Source: a virus
Taxonomy: Duplodnaviria; Caudoviricetes
Reading direction: 5' to 3' (one strand)
Virus record (IMG/VR): IMGVR_UViG_3300037493_000871
Coordinates: 1,571 to 65,570 of that record
Length of the DNA stretch: 64,000 bases
Under the pieces are notes generated by a model. It did no database searches and had not been told where the DNA came from. It worked only from the letters and a program-made list of their open reading frames with translations. The position numbers were made by a program, and so were the translations under genes. This document shows, piece by piece, positions 1,757-47,596 of the stretch. Positions within the stretch are counted from its first letter, which is position 1. Each line of letters opens with the position of its first letter.

Positions 1757-4318
1757 ATGGCTACAAACATGTTCCCCTCCCTGTCGCAAGCCCCACTAGG
1801 TTTGGACGCGCTGACCCCAGAACCCCAAGACTTTGAAGATGGGCCCGGCGTTGAGATTGTGATCGAGGACCCCGAGGGCGTGCATATTGGCATGGACGGC
1901 TTGCAGATTGATATGGAGCCGGGCGAAGGCACGGACGAAGATTTTGATGCCAACCTTGCAGAGTTCATGGACGAGTCCGAGCTGCAGAAAGTAGCGGGCG
2001 ATATTATTGCGTTGGTCGATGCCGACATCAACTCGCGCAAAGACTGGGTAGAAGATTACGTCAAGGGCCTTGATGTGCTGGGCATGAAGTACGAAGAGCG
2101 TACGGAGCCGTGGCTGGGTTCTTGTGGAGTGTTCTCCACCGTGCTGACTGAAGCGGCCATCCGCTTCCAGAGCGAGACAATCATTGAGACGTTCCCGGCT
2201 GCCGGCCCAGTGAAGACCGAGATCGTGGGTGCGATCGACAAGCTCAAAGAAGAAGCCGCCGAGCGCGTCAGAGAAGACATGAACTACCAGCTCACCGAGG
2301 TGATGACTGAGTACCGGCCCGAGCATGAGAAGATGCTGTACAGCTTGGGGTTGGCCGGCAGCGCGTTCAAGAAGGTGTATTTTGACCCGTCAATGGACCG
2401 CCAAACATCGACGTTTGTGCCATCCGAAGACATCATTATTCCGTACGGCTCCTCGGACGCCAGCACTGCAGAGCGTGTCGCGCACATCATGCGCAAGACC
2501 AAGAACGACATCCGCAAGCTGCAGGTAGCAGGGTTCTACCGCGACATCGAGCTGGGCGAGCCCACCCAAATCCACACCGATGTGGAGAAGAAAAAGGCTG
2601 AAGACCAAGGGTATTCCCTTACGGACGATGAGCGCTATCAGACGCTGGAGATTCATATCGACTACGATATGCCCGGCTACGAAGATGAGGACGAGATTGC
2701 ATTGCCCTACGTGGTGACGATCGACCGCGCAACGACCAAGGTTCTGGCCATCTACCGTAACTGGGAAGAGGGCGACAAGACCAAGGCGAAACGCCAACAC
2801 TTCGTACAGTACACGTACATTCCCGGCTTTGGCCCCTATGGCATGGGCCTGATTAACCTGATCGGTGGCTATGCCCGCGCAGGCACAAGTATCATTCGCC
2901 AGTTGGTTGATGCCGGCACACTGAGCAACTTGCCCGGCGGCCTCAAGACCCGCGGCTTGCGTACCAAGGGAGATGACACCCCGATCGCTCCGGGTGAGTT
3001 CCGTGACGTGGACGTGCCAAGCGGCTCCATCCGCGACAACATCATGGCCCTGCCATACAAGGAGCCAAGCCAAGTCCTGCTGGCCCTGCTGAACCAGATC
3101 ACCGACGAAGCTCGCCGGCTGGGTTCGATCGCGGACATGAACATCAGCGACATGAGCGCGAACTCGCCCGTGGGCACAACCCTCGCGCTGCTGGAGCGCC
3201 AGCTCAAGACCATGAGCGCGGTGCAGGCCCGGGTCCACTACAGCATGAAGCAAGAGTTCCAGCTCTTGCGCGACATCATCCGGGACAACACCCCCAAAGA
3301 GTACAGCTTCGACCCCTCCAGCGGCACCCGCAAAGCCAAGCAGGAAGACTACGACATGGTGTCGGTCATTCCAGTCAGCGACCCCAACAGCTCGACCATG
3401 GCCCAGCGAATCATGCAGTACCAAGCTGTGATTCAGTTGTCGCAAAGCGCCCCACAGATTTATGACCTGCCCCAGTTGCACCGCCAGATGATTGAAGTGC
3501 TGGGCATCAAGAACGCAGACAAGCTGGTGCCGTTGGAAGACGACATGAAGCCCCGCGACCCGGTGTCCGAGAACATGGCCTTCCTGAACGGCAAGCCAAC
3601 CAAGGCGTTCATCTACCAAGACCATGAAGCGCACATCGCTGTTCACACCAGCATGATGCAGGACCCACTGCTCATGGCCCAGATTGGCCAGAACCCACAA
3701 GCGCAGAAGATGCAGGCCGAGATTCAAGCGCACATGTCTGAACACTTGGCGTTCGCGTACCGCAAGAAAGTCGAAGAGCAGTTGGGCGTGCCCCTGCCAC
3801 CACCCGACGAGCAAATGCCAGAAGAAGCCGAAGTCATGCTGTCGCAACTGGTCGCCCAAGGTGCCAAGCAACTGCTGGCGCAGAGCAAGAGCCAAGCTGC
3901 CCAACAGCAAGCGCAGCAACAAGCCCAAGACCCGCTCATCCAAATGCAGCAAGAAGAGCTGAAGATCAAGGCGCAGGACGCCAAGACCAAAGAACTCAAG
4001 GTCCGCGGCGACTTGCAGATCAAGGCCGAGGAGCTGGCGCTCAAAGCACGCGAGAGCGCGTCCAAGGTTGGCGAAGACCCGAACATGGCCGCCATGCGCA
4101 CGCAGCAAGAACTCATGCAAGCCCAAGAGTTGCACGCGCTAGAGGTCGCCAATCAGCAGCAAGCACAGCAGGCGCAGGGGCAGCAGGCCGCTATGGCCAT
4201 GGGCCAGCAGGCTCAGGCTCACGCTCAGAAGATGGCCCACGGCGGGGAAGTGCATAACCAGAAACTGCGCCACGCCGAGATGGCGGCCAACCAACCCACA
4301 GAAACAGGTAACGAATGA
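1757..4318 (+). CDS. portal protein with Gln-rich C-terminal extension
   Basis: 853 aa directly after TerL; GSAFKKVYFD and GFGPYGMG podoviral portal-like motifs. Confidence 0.88.
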   Translation: MATNMFPSLSQAPLGLDALTPEPQDFEDGPGVEIVIEDPEGVHIGMDGLQIDMEPGEGTDEDFDANLAEFMDESELQKVAGDIIALVDADINSRKDWVEDYVKGLDVLGMKYEERTEPWLGSCGVFSTVLTEAAIRFQSETIIETFPAAGPVKTEIVGAIDKLKEEAAERVREDMNYQLTEVMTEYRPEHEKMLYSLGLAGSAFKKVYFDPSMDRQTSTFVPSEDIIIPYGSSDASTAERVAHIMRKTKNDIRKLQVAGFYRDIELGEPTQIHTDVEKKKAEDQGYSLTDDERYQTLEIHIDYDMPGYEDEDEIALPYVVTIDRATTKVLAIYRNWEEGDKTKAKRQHFVQYTYIPGFGPYGMGLINLIGGYARAGTSIIRQLVDAGTLSNLPGGLKTRGLRTKGDDTPIAPGEFRDVDVPSGSIRDNIMALPYKEPSQVLLALLNQITDEARRLGSIADMNISDMSANSPVGTTLALLERQLKTMSAVQARVHYSMKQEFQLLRDIIRDNTPKEYSFDPSSGTRKAKQEDYDMVSVIPVSDPNSSTMAQRIMQYQAVIQLSQSAPQIYDLPQLHRQMIEVLGIKNADKLVPLEDDMKPRDPVSENMAFLNGKPTKAFIYQDHEAHIAVHTSMMQDPLLMAQIGQNPQAQKMQAEIQAHMSEHLAFAYRKKVEEQLGVPLPPPDEQMPEEAEVMLSQLVAQGAKQLLAQSKSQAAQQQAQQQAQDPLIQMQQEELKIKAQDAKTKELKVRGDLQIKAEELALKARESASKVGEDPNMAAMRTQQELMQAQELHALEVANQQQAQQAQGQQAAMAMGQQAQAHAQKMAHGGEVHNQKLRHAEMAANQPTETGNE

Positions 4319-4515
4319 TGGACGAACGTGTTCTGGACATTTTGAATAAGAAGCTTGAAGTCCAAGTCGAGGGCTTCAAGTCGATTTTGTGTGATGGAGG
4401 TGCGAAATCCTTCGATCACTACAAAGAACTGAGCGGGACCATCCGGGGTCTCCAACTCGCTCAGTTAGAACTTGGGGACCTCGTGCGTAAACTGAAAGAT
4501 ATTGACGATGAATAA
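4315..4515 (+). CDS. small hypothetical protein
   Basis: ATGA overlap with portal stop; 66 aa helical protein. Confidence 0.7.
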   Translation: MMDERVLDILNKKLEVQVEGFKSILCDGGAKSFDHYKELSGTIRGLQLAQLELGDLVRKLKDIDDE

Positions 4516-4906
4516 ATTCGACGTCCAAGCGGTCGATTTGTCGGGCCTACTCAACAAGCCTGTTGAGGATAAAGCCAAGCAGATTCCTGACCCAGTGACC
4601 TACCACCTTCTGTGCATGCTCCCAGAAGCCAAAGAGGAATACGAAGGCGGTATCCTCAAGTCAGCCCAAGCCATGATGCATGAAGAGCTCCTGTCTCCCG
4701 TGCTGTTCGTGGCGAAGATTGGCCCAGATGCCTTCAAAGACACCGCACGGTTCCCGTCCGGCCCGTCTTGCGCTGTTGGCGACTTCATTTTGGTTCGGCC
4801 AAACACCGGCACCCGAATGAAAATCCACGGTACTGAATGGCGGCTCATCAATGACGACTCGGTGCAGGCGGTCATCCAAGACCCCCGTGGCATCCAGCGT
4901 CCATAA
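4508..4906 (+). CDS. GroES-like co-chaperonin
   Basis: Cpn10 pattern: EGGIL mobile loop, V..IGP, VGD.ILV, R(L)INDDSV.AVI. Confidence 0.85.
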   Translation: MNKFDVQAVDLSGLLNKPVEDKAKQIPDPVTYHLLCMLPEAKEEYEGGILKSAQAMMHEELLSPVLFVAKIGPDAFKDTARFPSGPSCAVGDFILVRPNTGTRMKIHGTEWRLINDDSVQAVIQDPRGIQRP

Positions 4907-4915
4907 GGAGTAATC

Positions 4916-5875
4916 ATGGCTGGTTTTGAAAAAACAGAATTTGAGTTCCCCGATATGGTGGAAGAAAAAGCCTCTCGTGCCGGCAGCAAGGTTGTAGAGC
5001 CTGAGTCCGACCAACCGGAAATCGAAGTCGTTGACGACACCCCGGAACAGGACCGCAATCGCAAGCCGATGGCGGAAGCCCCCAAGGATGTGACCGACGA
5101 CGAGCTGTCCAAGTACGATGAGGGCGTCCAAAAACGCATCAAGCACTTTACGAAGGGCTACCACGAAGAGCGCCGCGCCAAAGAGTCCGCGGAACGTGAG
5201 CGCGAGGAAGCCTTGAAGTTTGCGCAAACCATGGCCGAAGAGAACAAAAAGCTCAAGGGCTCTTTGCACCAAGGCCAGAACGCTTTGCTGGAGCAGGCCA
5301 AGAAAGTCGTGGCCAATGAGCTCACTGACGCCAAGCGCAAATACAAGGAAGCCTACGAAGCCGGCGACTCGGACGCCCTCGTAAACGCCCAAGAAGAACT
5401 CACCAATGTGAAGATGAAAGCCGACCGGGTAAATAATTTCCGGCCTGCCCCTTTACAGGAAGAAGAAAATACAGTACAACCTGTACCACAGCCCCGACAG
5501 GCTGCGCCTCTTGATAACAAACTACTTGCTTGGACTGACAAAAATCAGTGGTTTGGTACCAATAAGCGCATGTCAGCATATGCCTTGGCATTGCATGACG
5601 AACTTGAAGGGGAAGGCATCCCGGCAGGAAGCGACGAATACTACCGACGTATCGACGCAGAAATGCAGGAGCGCTTTTCGGACCAATTTGGAACCGATGA
5701 GCCCGCTGAAGCGACAAAATCTCAGCGTACCAAATCCAATGTTGTTGCACCTGCAACCAGAAGCACTGCGCCCCGCAAGGTCGTGCTAACTCAGACACAG
5801 GTGAATCTCGCCAAGCGGCTCGGCGTTCCTTTGGAACTCTATGCTCGTAAGGTTGCGGAAGAAATGAGGAAATGA
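4916..5875 (+). CDS. scaffolding-like coiled-coil protein
   Basis: Acidic/coiled-coil 319 aa between portal and capsid; C-terminal AKRLGVPLELYA; SD AGGAG. Confidence 0.65.
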   Translation: MAGFEKTEFEFPDMVEEKASRAGSKVVEPESDQPEIEVVDDTPEQDRNRKPMAEAPKDVTDDELSKYDEGVQKRIKHFTKGYHEERRAKESAEREREEALKFAQTMAEENKKLKGSLHQGQNALLEQAKKVVANELTDAKRKYKEAYEAGDSDALVNAQEELTNVKMKADRVNNFRPAPLQEEENTVQPVPQPRQAAPLDNKLLAWTDKNQWFGTNKRMSAYALALHDELEGEGIPAGSDEYYRRIDAEMQERFSDQFGTDEPAEATKSQRTKSNVVAPATRSTAPRKVVLTQTQVNLAKRLGVPLELYARKVAEEMRK

Positions 5876-42167: not shown

Positions 42168-42195
42168 ATTATACACTGTAAAATTTAGCTGTCAA
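42168..42195 (-). promoter_or_regulatory. consensus sigma70 promoter
   Basis: TTGACA-16 nt-TATAAT on - strand. Confidence 0.85.
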
Positions 42196-43774
42196 TGACT
42201 TGTTTGTAGAGCTCCACCAAATCCATGTGCAAGTCGATCTTGTTCTGGAGCATGGTGTATAGCCGCCGCTCAACGGGGCTGCCCTGCAAGTGTGTGATGG
42301 TGACCTTGTTGGTCTGCCCTGCGCGGTGAGCGCGTGAGTTCGCTTGCAGGTAAATCTCCGTAGATGATACAGGCCCCCACCAGACAACTTGGTTCGCTCT
42401 TGTCAGGGTAATCCCGTGCGCAGTAGCTTGTGGAATGAGCAGTAGTACCCGTGTGGTGTCCTCAGTCTGGAACCGCTTGATGATTTCTGCACGTTGCGTA
42501 GCTGCAACACCGCCATGAATACACTCCACATCGTACCCACTGCCATCTTCCGACAAGCCGATCAGTTTTGGTAGGCGCTTGGCCAGTTCCGTGCGCAGCA
42601 TCTCCATAGTGTGCCGATACGGCACAAACACCAGCACCTTGTGCCGGGACTCTTCGATCACGCTCATAAGTTCTTCAAGCCGGTTGGTCACATCGAACTC
42701 AACCACGTCTCCATCGTCCGTATAGACTGCGCCCTGCGATACCTGCAAGAGCTTGTTCAGCATAGCGGCTGCATTGACCGCGGTAATTTCGGAGCCGGCG
42801 GCCACGGTAATCATTTGCTTGCGCAGCGCCTCGTAGTACTTGGTCTGCTGCGGCGTAAGCGGCACCTCGCGGGTTGCGTACAGCATGTCGGGCAAGTCAA
42901 GGCACTCTTCCTTAGTGAACCGTATCGCGGGCTGCAGCACCTGATGCACGATGCTCTGAGCCTCTTGCCGTGGGGCCCACTTGTACTGAGTCAGCTTGAG
43001 CATCACACGGTCACGGAACGCGCCAAAGAAGCGCGGCACGGCATCAGGGTTCACGAGCTTGGCCAAGCCGTACGCATCAAGCGGAGACTGCGAAGCAGGT
43101 GTGCCCGTCATCATCCACAAGCGTGTCGTTGGTTTAATCAGCGTAGCGAGGGCTTTCCACCTGTCTGTCGTCACGCTCTTGACGGCATTGGCTTCGTCCA
43201 CAATCACAAGATCAAACCCGCCAGCTTCCAGCTCTTCGCGCACTACCTTGACGCCATCGAAGTTGATGACAATAAAGTCATAGTTGCCCTTGATGATGTT
43301 CTGCCGTTGTGTGCGTGAGCCCTGCGCAATGGCTACTGTGCGGTGCATGACCGTCTTGAACAAGTCCGAGCGCCATGCAGTCTCCATGATAGACACGGGG
43401 CAGATGATGAGCACCCGCTTGACCTTGCCTTGCTGCATTAGATAGTCAGCGGCCCATGCTGCGGCACTGGTCTTGCCTGTGCCGGCCTCGTTAAACACAA
43501 AGCAGCGGGGGTTCAGTGTGAGGAAGTCTGCAGTGGTGCGCTGGTGGTCAAACGGGGTGAACATGCCCGGCCATTTGTACCTGCCCACGATGGGGCTTGG
43601 CACGTCCTTGATACCCAGATTGCGAAGCAGTTGCACTTCATCAAACCCCCAGTTTACGAGGACTTGATCGACGTCATCTTTGCTCGCAAGTATTTTGCTT
43701 TTTGGGATAAGGGCAGTGATCTGCCCCGCCTTACGTGTGTTGAACATAAGGGCTTTGGAGTCAACGATTTGCAT
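42185..43774 (-). CDS. SNF2-like superfamily 2 helicase
   Basis: GTGKT, VDEA, TGTP, HGITLT, QANSRAHRAGQ. Confidence 0.92.
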   Translation of the reverse strand: MQIVDSKALMFNTRKAGQITALIPKSKILASKDDVDQVLVNWGFDEVQLLRNLGIKDVPSPIVGRYKWPGMFTPFDHQRTTADFLTLNPRCFVFNEAGTGKTSAAAWAADYLMQQGKVKRVLIICPVSIMETAWRSDLFKTVMHRTVAIAQGSRTQRQNIIKGNYDFIVINFDGVKVVREELEAGGFDLVIVDEANAVKSVTTDRWKALATLIKPTTRLWMMTGTPASQSPLDAYGLAKLVNPDAVPRFFGAFRDRVMLKLTQYKWAPRQEAQSIVHQVLQPAIRFTKEECLDLPDMLYATREVPLTPQQTKYYEALRKQMITVAAGSEITAVNAAAMLNKLLQVSQGAVYTDDGDVVEFDVTNRLEELMSVIEESRHKVLVFVPYRHTMEMLRTELAKRLPKLIGLSEDGSGYDVECIHGGVAATQRAEIIKRFQTEDTTRVLLLIPQATAHGITLTRANQVVWWGPVSSTEIYLQANSRAHRAGQTNKVTITHLQGSPVERRLYTMLQNKIDLHMDLVELYKQVIDS

Positions 43775-43885: not shown

Positions 43886-44170
43886 TCACTTTTTACGTTC
43901 GCGCTTAGAAATTTGCGACTTCATTGCGCCCGTCTTGGTGCGTGAGAAACTTGTGTTTTCAGATTGCGGCGCGGCTCTAAGATTAGCCAGTGTGGATGTG
44001 CCGCCCTTGGACATTGCCTTCTTGTGGTCAACGTCAACAGTTGCAGGCAGATCGCCGTGGGCTTTCTCATAGGCCCGCCGCGCCTTATGGCGCTCAGACT
44101 GAGCAGCCAGTTGTTTTGGGGTGCCTTGGTACCGCTCGTATTCCATTTTGAAATTGCGTGGTTTAGCCAT
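43886..44170 (-). CDS. small HNH-like protein
   Basis: DVDHKKAMSKGG...NLR......N; ATG at 44170. Confidence 0.7.
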   Translation of the reverse strand: MAKPRNFKMEYERYQGTPKQLAAQSERHKARRAYEKAHGDLPATVDVDHKKAMSKGGTSTLANLRAAPQSENTSFSRTKTGAMKSQISKRERKK

Positions 44171-44825
44171 GATGGTGATCGCAAGAAAATACAGGACAAA
44201 ATTTACAGAGGGCTGACGACCGAGGGTTCCATACCCCCACGTCAACGGCTGCTTCGATAGCCCCGGCTCTGCCTGCCCATTTCGACAGAATCTCGGGAAG
44301 TTGTGTGCGCTTGAACTGAGCCTTGATGATGTCCCCAACCACCACAAAAAGCAAGACCCCTTTGACGGTATCTACTGATGGGTGGTGCAGCATAATCATT
44401 GCGGCCATAAGTTCGAGCTGTGCGGTGTCAGCGAACCGGCTTGACTTGCCGGTCTTGTAGTCTGCTACGCGAGCTGTCTTGCCGTCTGGGCTGATGACGA
44501 GGTAGTCAGGTATCCCGCGCATCCATACGTCTTTGTCAAAAAATCCACACGGGCTAAAGTCAGCTCGGATGGCCATGCGCTCTTCGCATCGGATGTCTCC
44601 TGCCGCGGCAGCGAGAGGTTCCACGAATGGGCGGTACGCCGCAAAAGTTGCAGGTAGGTCGGCTCCATCTTTGATAAAGTCTTCAAACGCTTTGTGTACT
44701 GCGGTGCCATAGAGAGTTGCATCGGTGTCTTTTGATTTAAATTTTTTGAGAATACGAACTTCGTGGTAGCGCCGTGGGCACCCCTCGTAATCTTTGATGG
44801 ACGAATAAGAATGAGCGAGTGCCAT
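44163..44825 (-). CDS. PD-(D/E)xK Cas4/RecB-like exonuclease
   Basis: SYS....CP, GTAVH, RGIPD, DYKTG, QL, C-terminal CxxCP...C. Confidence 0.88.
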   Translation of the reverse strand: MALAHSYSSIKDYEGCPRRYHEVRILKKFKSKDTDATLYGTAVHKAFEDFIKDGADLPATFAAYRPFVEPLAAAAGDIRCEERMAIRADFSPCGFFDKDVWMRGIPDYLVISPDGKTARVADYKTGKSSRFADTAQLELMAAMIMLHHPSVDTVKGVLLFVVVGDIIKAQFKRTQLPEILSKWAGRAGAIEAAVDVGVWNPRSSALCKFCPVFSCDHHHG

Positions 44826-44857: not shown

Positions 44858-47596
44858 TTAACAGTCCCCGTACGATTCGCCCATCCCTGATTCACAGGCC
44901 AAAGGCAAGCCTGTCGCCCACTTGGGGTTCCAGCTCATGCACTCCTCCAGATAGGCTTGCGCCTCCTTGGCTTCTTCCTTCTTGGCGATGATGGCGATCG
45001 CATCATGCACAGTCAGCACCACCTTGTACCGCTTGGCTACGCGCAGCATCTGTTCGGCCACCACCTGCCTAGCTACCGCTTGGCATACGTTCTCCACGCA
45101 GTTATGAACTACAAAGGGTTCCGAATGACCTCGGACCATGAAGCGCGTTCTGGGTCCGGCGTTGAGGAGGTCATAGACAGGTTCCGGTGCCAGCGAAACG
45201 CGAGAGTCGATCTCGAAATACCCGTTACCGCATGTGCTTTCCGCAAGTCCACCGGCAGTGACCCCCTGCGGTTGGTCGCTTGTACCGCCATCGACACCCA
45301 TCGGCAGTTTTCCGGGGTATACGACCCGTTGTTGTCCCGTCGATCCAACGTCAACCCCGAAGCGTAAGTTGGCCCCATGTCGGCCCAGAACGCCTCGAAA
45401 GACTGTTGCCATGCTGCGCATACAGTAACCCCACGCGCCCCGTAGTTGTGCCATGCCTGATGTGAGGGCAGTCGGCATCGGTCGCGCATCGACCTCCACA
45501 CCCAATATGCGGGATGTTTGGACATTGCGTGCGTCTGGATTTTTGCCCCCACCATGCACCCGCACGAGGGGTGTCCCCCACGCTTGGCGTACTTCTCCGT
45601 GTCGATCGCTGCCCGTGTTACGCAACCCCCGCACTGGCATTGGAACTTCCACAGCGACCTGCGACCGTCCGACCCCATGTAGTGCAGGGCCGTCAGGTAT
45701 CCGAACTTCTGCCCGGTGTAATCCTTCGCACGCTGATGCATCGCGCCAACCTTTCTCTGTAAGTACTTTGTGGTCCGGCGTCATCCGAACACCGTCTACC
45801 ACGATGGTATGCTTTTCGCCTTGGTATGTCAACCCGCCATGTTGCACCCATTCAACCCCGTCCCAAACTTGATCGTCTTGTCGCACCGATCCGATAGGAA
45901 TCCACCCCCGATGCGTTAGGACTTGAGTATCTCCTGCCAAACATTTGCCTCCATAGATACGCACAGGCAGCCCCTTGGATGTGTACACAAGCTCGCGCTT
46001 GCCCTCGTCGCCAATGTGAGCCCGTAGGCCCGGGTACTGGATGTGCAACCCATTGGGTAGGGTCAAGCCCGCGCCGGGTATTGCGTTCACAATGCCTATT
46101 GCATCGACCTGAATAGACTGGCCCTGCATCAACGCCGTAAGGCCGTTGCCGGCCCGTTGCCAGAACGCTGCGATGTGCCCTGCACTAGACCTGTATGCGT
46201 CAATAATGCGCTTGGCTTCTTCCAGAGTAACTTCAACCCCTGCCTGTGTCTTTAAGAACGCCTTGAGCTTAACGTGCCCAACGCCATAGCCTGCGCCCAG
46301 CACAACCGTCTTGCCCACCTGCCGCTGGCTACCTGCTCCGGTGGTCACCTGCTCCACGGGGATGCCGTAAATCTTGGATGCCATCAGGCTGTACACGTCC
46401 TGCTTGTCCCTGAATGCTTGCAGCAAGTCCTCCTGCCCGGCCAGCCAAGCCAGCACACGGGCCTCAATCTGCGCGGAGTCACAGTCAATCACCACGTAAC
46501 CTTCTGGGGCCCTGATGGCCTTCTTGATCTTGCCAGCGTCTGCGCCGCGTGACGGCAGGTTCTGCAGGTTTACAGAGTCTTGGCCAGACCAGCGACCAGA
46601 ATGGGCCCCGTAGTAACGCAGAGGTACAGGAAACTTACCTCGACCAGACATGCCAATAAAGCGTTGCGTACGAGTCTCTTCAAGTGTTGTCTTGTTTCCA
46701 AGGCGGGCGGCGACAAGCATTTGGACTCGTACATCAGGGTGCTCCATCAACTCTTTGAATGCATCATCGGTTTTGGCAAATGCATAGGCCAGCTTCTTGG
46801 TAGTGGCGCTGATCTTCGTGGGCGGCACAACGCCGTAGTTCTCCAGCACCAAGGCAAACTTGGGGTTTGACATGAGCAGCTTCTTGATGCCATCCATGCC
46901 CTCGCTGAAGATCGTATGCACGTACTCGGGCTCGGCGTCTTTCAGCATGAAGTCCCGCACACTCTCCATCAAGGCTTCCTTGCGGTCTTTGACTTCTTCC
47001 AGATGCGCAACCAGCATGGGTTTGTCTAATATTAGAACGGGGTCGATGAACATGCGCAGCGTCAGGTCAATCAGCTTGAGCTCGGACTTGGGGAACCCAA
47101 GGTTCATGTACTGCATGAACAAGTCGTAAGTCAGGTTCACGTCATTGCAGCAGTACTCACCGTAGCGTTCCAACTCATGCCATGTGAAGTCAGCGTAGTG
47201 CTTGCCCTTGGCGTTGTCCACCTCGTTGCCCTTCACACCAGCCACCATGCGTTCAGCTTGCGCTTTGAGACTGTGCGACCTCTCATGCGGGTACAGCGCA
47301 CGAGACATACCCATAATGTCTACCCACGCCATCGGGTCAACGCCGTAGTGCCACTTCAGCACAGCACCATCGAACGCAGTGTTCTGGCACACCACGATCT
47401 TGTCCGACCAATCAATGCTGGCCAGCACGCGCTCTACGTCAGGCTTAGGCACCCATACGGTTGGGCCGTTGTCGATCTTGTATGCGAACCCAATGGTTTC
47501 CCACTGGGGCCCACGCACGTACTCTTCGGTCGTCAGCTTGGAGAAGCCAAAGTCCTGTGAGTAGTAAGTTTCTAGGTCGATTGTTAGGATGCTCAT
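44858..47596 (-). CDS. family A DNA polymerase interrupted by an intein
   Basis: Exo I DLETY, SGRWS..NLQNLP, motif A DSAQIEAR, motif B R..GK...LG..YG, motif C TVHD. Confidence 0.92.
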   Translation of the reverse strand: MSILTIDLETYYSQDFGFSKLTTEEYVRGPQWETIGFAYKIDNGPTVWVPKPDVERVLASIDWSDKIVVCQNTAFDGAVLKWHYGVDPMAWVDIMGMSRALYPHERSHSLKAQAERMVAGVKGNEVDNAKGKHYADFTWHELERYGEYCCNDVNLTYDLFMQYMNLGFPKSELKLIDLTLRMFIDPVLILDKPMLVAHLEEVKDRKEALMESVRDFMLKDAEPEYVHTIFSEGMDGIKKLLMSNPKFALVLENYGVVPPTKISATTKKLAYAFAKTDDAFKELMEHPDVRVQMLVAARLGNKTTLEETRTQRFIGMSGRGKFPVPLRYYGAHSGRWSGQDSVNLQNLPSRGADAGKIKKAIRAPEGYVVIDCDSAQIEARVLAWLAGQEDLLQAFRDKQDVYSLMASKIYGIPVEQVTTGAGSQRQVGKTVVLGAGYGVGHVKLKAFLKTQAGVEVTLEEAKRIIDAYRSSAGHIAAFWQRAGNGLTALMQGQSIQVDAIGIVNAIPGAGLTLPNGLHIQYPGLRAHIGDEGKRELVYTSKGLPVRIYGGKCLAGDTQVLTHRGWIPIGSVRQDDQVWDGVEWVQHGGLTYQGEKHTIVVDGVRMTPDHKVLTEKGWRDASACEGLHRAEVRIPDGPALHGVGRSQVAVEVPMPVRGLRNTGSDRHGEVRQAWGTPLVRVHGGGKNPDARNVQTSRILGVEVDARPMPTALTSGMAQLRGAWGYCMRSMATVFRGVLGRHGANLRFGVDVGSTGQQRVVYPGKLPMGVDGGTSDQPQGVTAGGLAESTCGNGYFEIDSRVSLAPEPVYDLLNAGPRTRFMVRGHSEPFVVHNCVENVCQAVARQVVAEQMLRVAKRYKVVLTVHDAIAIIAKKEEAKEAQAYLEECMSWNPKWATGLPLACESGMGESYGDC
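45101..45943 (-). mobile_element. intein (281 aa) in DNA polymerase
   Basis: GGK|CLAGDTQV block A, TPDH block B, VYDL block F, VVHN|C block G. Confidence 0.92.
45109..45741 (-). CDS. HNH homing endonuclease overprinted in an alternative frame inside the intein
   Basis: G.KFG.LT, C.CG, SCGC, W.SMR.RC, YGARG..VC..W, TLDR.DNNGSY.PENCRW......N; SD-like AGAAAGG upstream. Confidence 0.85.
   Translation of the reverse strand: MHQRAKDYTGQKFGYLTALHYMGSDGRRSLWKFQCQCGGCVTRAAIDTEKYAKRGGHPSCGCMVGAKIQTHAMSKHPAYWVWRSMRDRCRLPSHQAWHNYGARGVTVCAAWQQSFEAFWADMGPTYASGLTLDRRDNNGSYTPENCRWVSMAVQATNRRGSLPVDLRKAHAVTGISRSTLAFRWHRNLSMTSSTPDPERASWSEVIRNPL

Follow-up and report, generated by a model that had tools for sequence, protein, structure and literature searches.

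The gene for DNA polymerase in a virus of the Caudoviricetes (IMG/VR record IMGVR_UViG_3300037493_000871) carries an intein whose centre, read in the polymerase frame, is open and without recognisable structure, and the locus thus raises the question of where the homing endonuclease of such an intein is encoded. The DNA that was analysed, referred to below as the window, is a stretch of 64,000 nucleotides (nt), positions 1,571 to 65,570 of that record, and all coordinates are counted from its first letter. The evidence argues strongly that this phage polymerase of family A houses a mobile intein of class 1 and that the homing-endonuclease gene of the intein is very probably a separate, HNH-like gene that is overprinted on the intein in the +1 frame and runs into both of its splicing lobes.

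The polymerase gene (PolA) lies at 44858..47596 on the minus strand as one open reading frame (ORF) for a 912-amino-acid (aa) precursor, and matches the Pfam DNA_pol_A domain with E 3e-36. The intein of 281 aa is encoded at 45101..45943 (-) and corresponds to PolA aa 552-832, between K551 and C833. It starts with CLAGDT, holds TPDH and VYDL and finishes with VVHN, which is followed by C, and its removal would give a spliced PolA product of 631 aa. The N-terminal splicing lobe with blocks A and B (45689..45943 (-), intein residues 1-85) and the C-terminal splicing lobe with blocks F and G (45101..45196 (-), residues 250-281) enclose an open, unstructured linker (45200..45685 (-), residues 87-248), and the DNA of this linker is that of the HNH-family gene. 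The latter encodes 210 aa at 45109..45741 (-), from an ATG start to a TAG stop, in the +1 frame relative to the polymerase, and its stop falls 8 nt short of the intein end. Both ends of the nested gene are dual coding. In overlap 1 (45689..45741 (-)), the end of the N lobe (GWRDASACEGLHRAEVRIPDG) and the HNH N-terminus (MHQRAKDYTGQKFGYLTA) share the same DNA and both frames are conserved in alignments. In overlap 2 (45109..45196 (-)), the C lobe coincides with the HNH tail and its stop. The coordinates of PolA, the intein and the HNH ORF given in an initial annotation of the locus all proved correct against the ORF list and in a boundary check. The unstructured polymerase-frame centre that it reported is also present, with a size of ∼162 aa (residues 87-248) and not ∼190.

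The polymerase-frame intein gave no match in Pfam and only a sub-threshold intein_Nterm match in NCBIfam, and its assignment is based on conserved residues and on structure prediction. In an alignment of 21 intein sequences C1, T55, H58, D258, H280 and N281 are invariant, so that the block B TxxH and the C-terminal His-Asn of class-1 inteins are both kept, and the +1 residue after the intein is Cys in all 27 rows. An AlphaFold model built with the alignment of the 21 polymerase-frame inteins has a pLDDT (predicted local distance difference test) score of ∼90 at residues 1-70, which drops to 73 and then to 57 by residue 90; residues 87-248 score ∼30 and residues 250-281 score 85-90. When the model was compared with 48,161 chains using VIA-align, the Mtu RecA intein was a structural match with Z 16.2 and a root-mean-square deviation (rmsd) of 2.0 over 123 aligned residues, and the NpuDnaB intein matched at Z 15.6. 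Thirty chains reached Z≥8 and, among the matches listed, these are intein or Hint-type domains. Hence, on the predicted structure, the PolA insert is a class-1 intein with a Hint fold, in which two intact lobes surround a disordered loop of ∼160 aa.

A layout with two frames could be an artefact of assembly or sequencing, in which two compensating indels mask the in-frame HNH domain of a canonical intein. The homology does change frame near both domain borders, where such errors would have to sit, and two of 611 candidate proteins (P0001 and P0002) read PolA-N, the N splicing lobe and HNH in one frame. The relatives of the locus were used to weigh this explanation. A scan of viral contigs with the HNH protein gave 47 loci, which contain 23 distinct intein copies after duplicates were removed. 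Read one base upstream of the HNH frame, the DNA stays open across HNH for 308-1077 aa at 26 of the 47 loci (35-88% HNH identity); at the remaining 21 loci it does so for just 3-66 aa, which is what free-standing genes should show. Independent viral contigs, 26 in number and with HNH identities as low as 35%, thus keep the two-frame layout, and so do the complete genomes of Caulobacter phage GB2A and Hamiltonella phage APSE-1. For run X1, a possible source sample, an independently assembled Logan contig agrees with the locus over all 1201 nt, with neither a difference nor a gap. Short contigs of three other studies span the HNH start region (45621-45877) with 0 gaps, and no indels are listed in the contigs of any of the four runs; parts of the stretch left uncovered in X2-X4 carry no information.

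The absence of stops from the polymerase frame also bears on the artefact. Stops were counted in this frame after the synonymous codons had been redrawn with the HNH protein held fixed. For the window, 7.75 stops were expected with the window codon usage (P(0)=1e-4) and 4.1 on permuting the synonymous codons of the ORF itself (P(0)=0.0067), and 0 are seen; a T precedes none of the 33 codons that are able to complete a polymerase-frame stop. The polymerase frame is likewise free of stops in 23 of 23 distinct intein copies, whose permutation means, the number that an unread frame would hold, are 2.5-8.4 stops (P(0) from 0 to 0.051). The third frame of these copies holds 4-16 stops, and the corresponding frame of free-standing relatives holds 7-38 (14 of 14 tested). 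Since the layout is conserved, the contigs are free of gaps and stops are absent, the compensating-indel explanation is excluded for practical purposes and its probability is negligible. Both the reality of the two frames, as supposed in the initial annotation, and the absence of hidden indels are therefore borne out.

P0001 and P0002 stop in the HNH frame and never regain blocks F/G or the C-extein, and, by sequence, both resemble errors or variants with a single indel and not canonical inteins. They could represent decaying alleles, steps toward an in-frame endonuclease, or errors. The frame switch of P0001 is inside the double-coded stretch, as a one-base deletion would give, and P0002 is without the HNH N-terminal domain. 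A metagenome scan for the P0001 contig yielded only two distant loci, L072 and L073.

Selection on the two frames was assessed from the ratio of nonsynonymous to synonymous differences per site (pN/pS) in 11 close sequences (55 pairs) using Nei-Gojobori (NG86) counts. The polymerase frame and the HNH frame have pN/pS values of 0.30 and 1.29, respectively, in the first 66 intein codons (N lobe), of 1.56 and 0.30 in the 148 codons of the HNH core, and of 0.50 and 0.66 in the C-terminal overlap; as NG86 is not designed for overlapping genes, it is the contrast between frames that counts and not the absolute values. Differences in the HNH core are concentrated at HNH codon position 3 (0.51, versus 0.24 and 0.21 at the other two). 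The C-terminal overlap has the lowest divergence of any region at all three positions (0.07-0.13) and per-site differences in overlap 1 are 0.10-0.26; low divergence at both ends is as expected of true double coding. Thus, the +1 frame is under purifying selection and the polymerase frame over the HNH core shows mainly stop avoidance, which is the pattern that the initial annotation had anticipated.

The product of the shifted frame, which had been called an HNH protein from its sequence, matches PHROG 374 ('HNH endonuclease') with E 3.7e-54 over residues 3-188 and so belongs to that family. Four further PHROGs with HNH or endonuclease annotations are also matched, and PHROGs 3377, 2081 and 953, which the ORF matches, are annotated HNH endonuclease. 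A model of the protein built with 28 relatives has a pLDDT of 87.4. In it, a small beta-barrel and a site of four Cys residues are followed by a core of beta-beta-alpha-Me-like form and by a tail of helices. The barrel comprises residues 3-57, and the cluster C35/C37/C60/C62 is invariant or nearly so. The top structural match of residues 70-159 is the HNH restriction enzyme PacI (PDB 3m7k), with 75 residues aligned at Z 6.3 and rmsd 2.7. I-HmuI (PDB 1u3e) is a weak match both in Foldseek (rank 20, E 0.88) and in phmmer (E 0.82), and the latter aligns the segment GLTLDRRDNNG..NCRW with the HNH motif of I-HmuI. The two proteins can be aligned, if weakly, over the motif GLxxD(H/R)xDxN...N(L/C)RW, and differ in that Arg134 of the window protein takes the position of I-HmuI His75, which we take to be the general base.

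Several features of the start region indicate how the nested gene may be expressed. At the aligned column of the window ATG, the 23 distinct copies have 10 ATG, 10 GTG and 1 TTG codons, and in the remaining two an ATG is located 4-5 codons further upstream. In 23 of 23 copies the HNH frame is closed by a stop 7-14 codons upstream of the start, and free-standing HNH relatives begin at the same residues. The purine-rich, Shine-Dalgarno (SD)-like site AGAAAGG (45750..45756 (-)) is located 8 nt upstream of the ATG, and a similar GGNTGG or GAAAGG stretch is found ahead of the HNH start in most relatives. An alternative is that the HNH protein is made by programmed +1 ribosomal frameshifting, as a fusion of PolA-N, splicing lobe and HNH, and not by initiation of its own. 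The two reading frames are adjacent and on the same strand, and P0001 demonstrates that such a fusion can occur as an ORF. However, all 23 copies keep a start codon in the same column or slightly ahead of it, a shift would be confined to the 7-14 codons after the HNH-frame stop, and inspection of those bases (not a formal search) revealed no stop-codon-type +1 shift site. The conserved start column together with the identical starts of the free-standing relatives favours independent initiation, and we consider the probability of frameshifting to be very slight.

A message for the HNH protein might also be started within the intein. A consensus scan identified the candidate internal promoter TTGACA-17 nt-TACCAT at 45804..45832 (-), which has 10 of 12 matches and is 63 nt before the ATG. 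Of the 62 third codon positions of the N lobe that are free to vary, only four do not differ among the 11 close relatives; these four are confined to codons 37-45 (45835-45809), over the promoter-like site, and at one of them T is found in all 11 sequences even though eight different amino acids are encoded there. It is because of this synonymous-site conservation that the motif is kept as a lead, and the sequence leaves the chances for and against an internal HNH promoter in the N lobe about equal. The sole run recorded as RNA held 0.05 of the sampled words.

If the nested gene encodes a homing endonuclease, the intein should be distributed as a mobile element, and the alleles of the polymerase are relevant here. 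A scan with the N-extein yielded 23 PolA relatives, of which 19 have no insert at the intein site and read seamlessly through YGGK|(V/C)(V/T)EN or GG|LCVEN. These include the closest PolA relative (L049, 84% identity), with the sequence RIYGGK|VVENVCQA. Two of the other four are contigs already known to have the intein and two have a different intein elsewhere. A tree of N-exteins was built from 39 rows, 22 with and 17 without the intein; three intein loci with an N-extein of <250 aa were left out, as were six loci of the N-extein scan that are duplicate, short or carry the other intein. Intein-bearing alleles occur in at least three separate places within a well-supported clade of 23 rows, and well-supported branches force at least three changes, in a sample of loci that is biased by how they were found. 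The sister of the window in this tree is without intein. A relative is represented in run X1 by a contig of low depth, in which 994 nt are skipped and 151 letters stand in between. The 994 nt correspond to the intein (843 nt) together with 151 nt of flank that has diverged, so that the sample seems to contain an intein-free relative as well. Because close polymerase relatives are intein-free, the intein looks mobile, judged by allele sequences.

Among nine sequences, the similarity of the intein DNA exceeds that of the N-extein DNA in all 36 pairs and that of the C-extein DNA in 34 of the 36; between the window and L002 the identities are 85% (intein), 70% (N-extein) and 67% (C-extein). The higher identity of the intein was considered as proof of recent transfer and rejected, as double coding may also slow change.

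We propose that the precursor folds its two lobes round the loop and splices to the 631-aa polymerase, and that the HNH protein would be produced by independent initiation at ATG 45741 (GTG in many relatives), either from the polymerase mRNA or from a transcript of its own driven by the candidate promoter at 45832-45804. This protein would then cut or nick intein-free YGGK-(V/C)VEN alleles in co-infecting phages, and repair of the cut allele would copy the intein in. As to origin, a free-standing HNH gene may have entered the intein, after which stops in the host frame would have been purged. This route, put forward in the initial annotation, fits the free-standing relatives with their 7-38 stops, and it is from such comparisons that we infer the direction of the history. 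All parts of that annotation's interpretation that can be tested by sequence (selection, indels and conservation of the layout) were supported.

The intein is widespread. Searches with its polymerase-frame sequence find 830 proteins at E≤1e-5; the best 120 of the 830 cover 98-100% of the intein, and 116 of these 120 have a PolA Pfam domain. The +1 ORF was verified in the 26 viral loci, and the 830 proteins were seen in the intein frame only. Across the window and loci L002-L028, the intein/HNH module occupies three different points of the PolA motif YGGK-x-x-EN-x-x-QA that are no more than four codons apart, namely GGK|C-VEN, GGKL|C-ENVTQ and VEN|C-(V/T)QA. Members at the first and third points share one well-supported HNH clade; only 3 of the 25 inner branches of the HNH protein tree are well supported, and it is too poorly resolved to decide for or against a single origin of the intein-borne genes. 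A homologous intein is also present in P0097, which is among these 120 proteins and is an SNF2-family helicase of 799 aa, with 41% identity and 100% coverage including the unstructured centre, which suggests that the module has switched host gene. The SNF2 helicase of the window itself (42185-43774) is without an intein.

Isolated phages are among the carriers. Sixteen records of the phage collection cover ≥80% of the intein, all under polymerase genes, and comprise four Caulobacter phages, eleven APSE records and Shewanella phage SFCi1; blastn of the whole gene against the same collection gave only an 8% match to SFCi1. In APSE-1 (NC_000935.1 / AF157835) P46, termed 'HNH endonuclease' in RefSeq, is nested in the polymerase P45 on the same strand and in the +1 frame, 2254 nt after the P45 start (L074:2931-3353). 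The APSE-1 intein is homologous to that of the window, over 100% of the query at 33.7% identity, and its +1 frame reads VHHRAKDITG..., like the window ORF. It differs in an insertion point one codon further on (YGGKS|CEN) and in its annotation, in which P46 has 141 aa from an internal ATG, whereas the homology starts ∼76 codons earlier at a GTG. A 2020 study of APSE mentions intein loss only. Caulobacter phage GB2A (L075) has the full hidden ORF with an ATG start, unannotated.

A split relative of the locus is seen in L071:2501-5406 (L068 looks alike), which contains a fractured PolA that is 67% identical to the window PolA. ORF1, which ends at 3835, encodes PolA-N and the N intein half, ORF2 (3705-4475) is an HNH-family gene that overlaps the end of ORF1, and ORF3 (4456-5406) encodes the C intein half (VYDILNCGPRHRF..VHN) followed by PolA-C. 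The split is at YYGAHTGRFSG|, a site other than that of the window intein. Identities to the window are 42% for the N half, 56% for the C half and 34% for the HNH-family ORF (E 4e-12, 4e-6 and 2e-11, respectively). The window PolA is one continuous ORF of 912 aa, in place of the two broken ORFs that define a fractured gene.

A number of observations weigh against the assignment of the +1 ORF as the homing endonuclease of a mobile, self-splicing intein. Pfam and NCBIfam scans of the HNH ORF gave no match, including to any HNH model, and a Foldseek search of the HNH model against PDB returned nothing at E≤0.001. The PacI Z score of 6.3 counts as middling on the tool's own scale, and the canonical His is absent, its place being taken by Arg134. 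Translation from ATG 45741 is something we infer from sequence alone; AGAAAGG offers a match of only AAGG to the TAAGGAG-type sites found before many genes of the phage, so that the SD-like site described initially is present but weak, and its bases also encode the conserved intein residues E-K-G-W. The promoter scan found 2 sites in the region versus 1.4 expected by chance, with no excess of either promoter or terminator sites over chance in the region, and the promoter-like motif is not shared by 10 more distant relatives. Splicing across a disordered insert of 160 aa is assumed, and the greater similarity of the intein DNA could come in part from double-coding constraint and not from transfer.

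Two alternatives draw on these observations. If the +1 ORF were a silent relic, the element would be a mini-intein with a junk linker that is inherited vertically and from which no nuclease is made, as the indirect case for expression, the missing His and the weak SD match would allow. Against this, the HNH frame has a pN/pS of 0.30 over 148 codons versus 1.56 for the polymerase frame, each of the 23 distinct copies has an intact ORF with a start codon, the fold is modelled with confidence (pLDDT 87.4) and the intein is sporadic among close polymerase alleles. Moreover, Arg at the canonical His position is nearly invariant in the 28 family members, free-standing genes included (L024 has His), which makes it a family trait rather than a sign of decay. 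The relic thus has a slight probability. Alternatively, the +1 protein could be expressed and selected without being a homing nuclease, for example by binding or nicking DNA in another phage function, with the intein spreading by ordinary recombination. The Arg in place of the general-base His, the lack of a match to any curated HNH model and the middling structural similarity to an HNH enzyme are in keeping with this, and on sequence grounds the nuclease activity of the protein is uncertain. However, the gene accompanies the intein at each of three neighbouring sites in PolA, the same intein is found, as far as its own frame shows, in a helicase protein of the SNF2 type, and the related fractured PolA has an HNH-family gene between its split intein halves. 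Such contexts are expected of a homing-endonuclease gene, and the matched PHROG families are annotated as HNH endonucleases, by annotation and not by assay. We regard this second alternative as unlikely, and favour the overprinted homing-endonuclease gene.

Out-of-frame intein endonucleases are already in print, so the PolA/HNH family is not a new kind of intein; it is a new, large and well-conserved family of a kind already described. Gosselin, Arsenault and Gogarten (bioRxiv 10.1101/2025.01.02.630785) described actinobacteriophage inteins with an out-of-frame, same-strand, endonuclease VII-like homing endonuclease and proposed its origin from a free-standing phage nuclease gene. These inteins resemble that of the window in having the nuclease ORF in another frame of the same strand between the splicing blocks, an in-frame centre without recognisable structure, and intein-free alleles among close relatives. 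They differ in the nuclease, which is endonuclease VII-like and in 'frame 3', compared with a PHROG-374 HNH-like protein in the +1 frame of a family A polymerase in the window; the polymerases listed in the available portion are DNA polymerase III alpha only, and the supplements may list further cases. A cyanobacterial dnaX intein with a LAGLIDADG endonuclease in a +2 ORF was reported by Phillips, DeSimone and Gogarten (bioRxiv 10.64898/2026.09.14.751524), who credit Gorbalenya 1998 for an out-of-frame intein endonuclease. Like the window intein, it has an in-frame centre that is disordered, whereas the product of the other frame folds confidently; purifying selection is specific to the frame, an SD-like site precedes the ORF, and the distribution is sporadic with coexisting intein-free alleles. 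It is distinguished by its LAGLIDADG nuclease, cellular host gene and other frame offset, where the window has an HNH-like protein and a phage polymerase.

Two further systems lack one part of this arrangement. In fractured genes the intein is split, and an endonuclease gene that stands free is placed between its two halves (Dassa et al. 2009, PMC2677866). They share a free-standing nuclease gene within the intein, and differ in that the host frame of the window is unbroken; as the intein is traversed by one ORF, cis splicing would be expected in place of trans splicing. The ShiLan-type hidden, out-of-frame HNH in a phage methylase (Arsenault, Gosselin and Gogarten 2025, PMC11855218) is also in an open host ORF, often with a GTG start, and its stop likewise falls a few bases short of where the insert ends, but it is without splicing domains, whereas both intein lobes are intact in the window. 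Full-text literature searches found no paper on the PolA/HNH intein family, although the supplements of the 2025 preprint may list relatives, and the nested ORF of the family was already annotated as P46 in the APSE-1 GenBank record AF157835. As far as the available portions of these sources go, the window intein extends beyond the published cases in the family of its nuclease, in the overlap with both splicing lobes and in having Arg where the canonical His would be. The published picture is also extended by the copy in a helicase, by the insertion at three adjacent points, by the relative with a fractured PolA and by the possible embedded promoter.

The family provides strong comparative evidence for a route to homing endonucleases in which a free-standing nuclease invades an intein, and this evidence comprises the 26 verified loci, the 830 proteins that match the intein frame and the isolated phages. 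It also provides true double coding at both ends, with a nuclease gene that overlaps the splicing blocks. Since its members include phages of Caulobacter CB15, a standard laboratory host, such as GB2A, RW, RLK and KcrB, splicing through the loop, internal initiation and homing could all be tested directly. For annotation it serves as a warning that the 'missing' endonuclease of an apparently domain-less intein may be in another frame; P46 of APSE-1 is annotated ∼76 residues too short, and most metagenomic members are unnamed in annotation.

A broader proposal, which we make tentatively and consider somewhat less than an even prospect, is that a single intein/HNH module exists in several states in the replication genes of related phages. 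It would be overprinted at three insertion points within four PolA codons, present in an SNF2 helicase, and split in a fractured PolA at a second site, perhaps with its own promoter in the synonymous sites of the splicing domain and with a nuclease that uses Arg for the general-base His. If this is true, the states of the module would be a living series for the acquisition of nucleases by inteins and for the origin of split inteins, and the Arg would represent a new catalytic variant.

A small ORF at 43886-44347 (-), located downstream of PolA and of a 220-aa ORF (44163-44825), contains DVDHKK...NLRAAPQSEN, a canonical-looking short HNH motif. In both APSE-1 and GB2A a small 'endonuclease' is likewise annotated near the polymerase gene.

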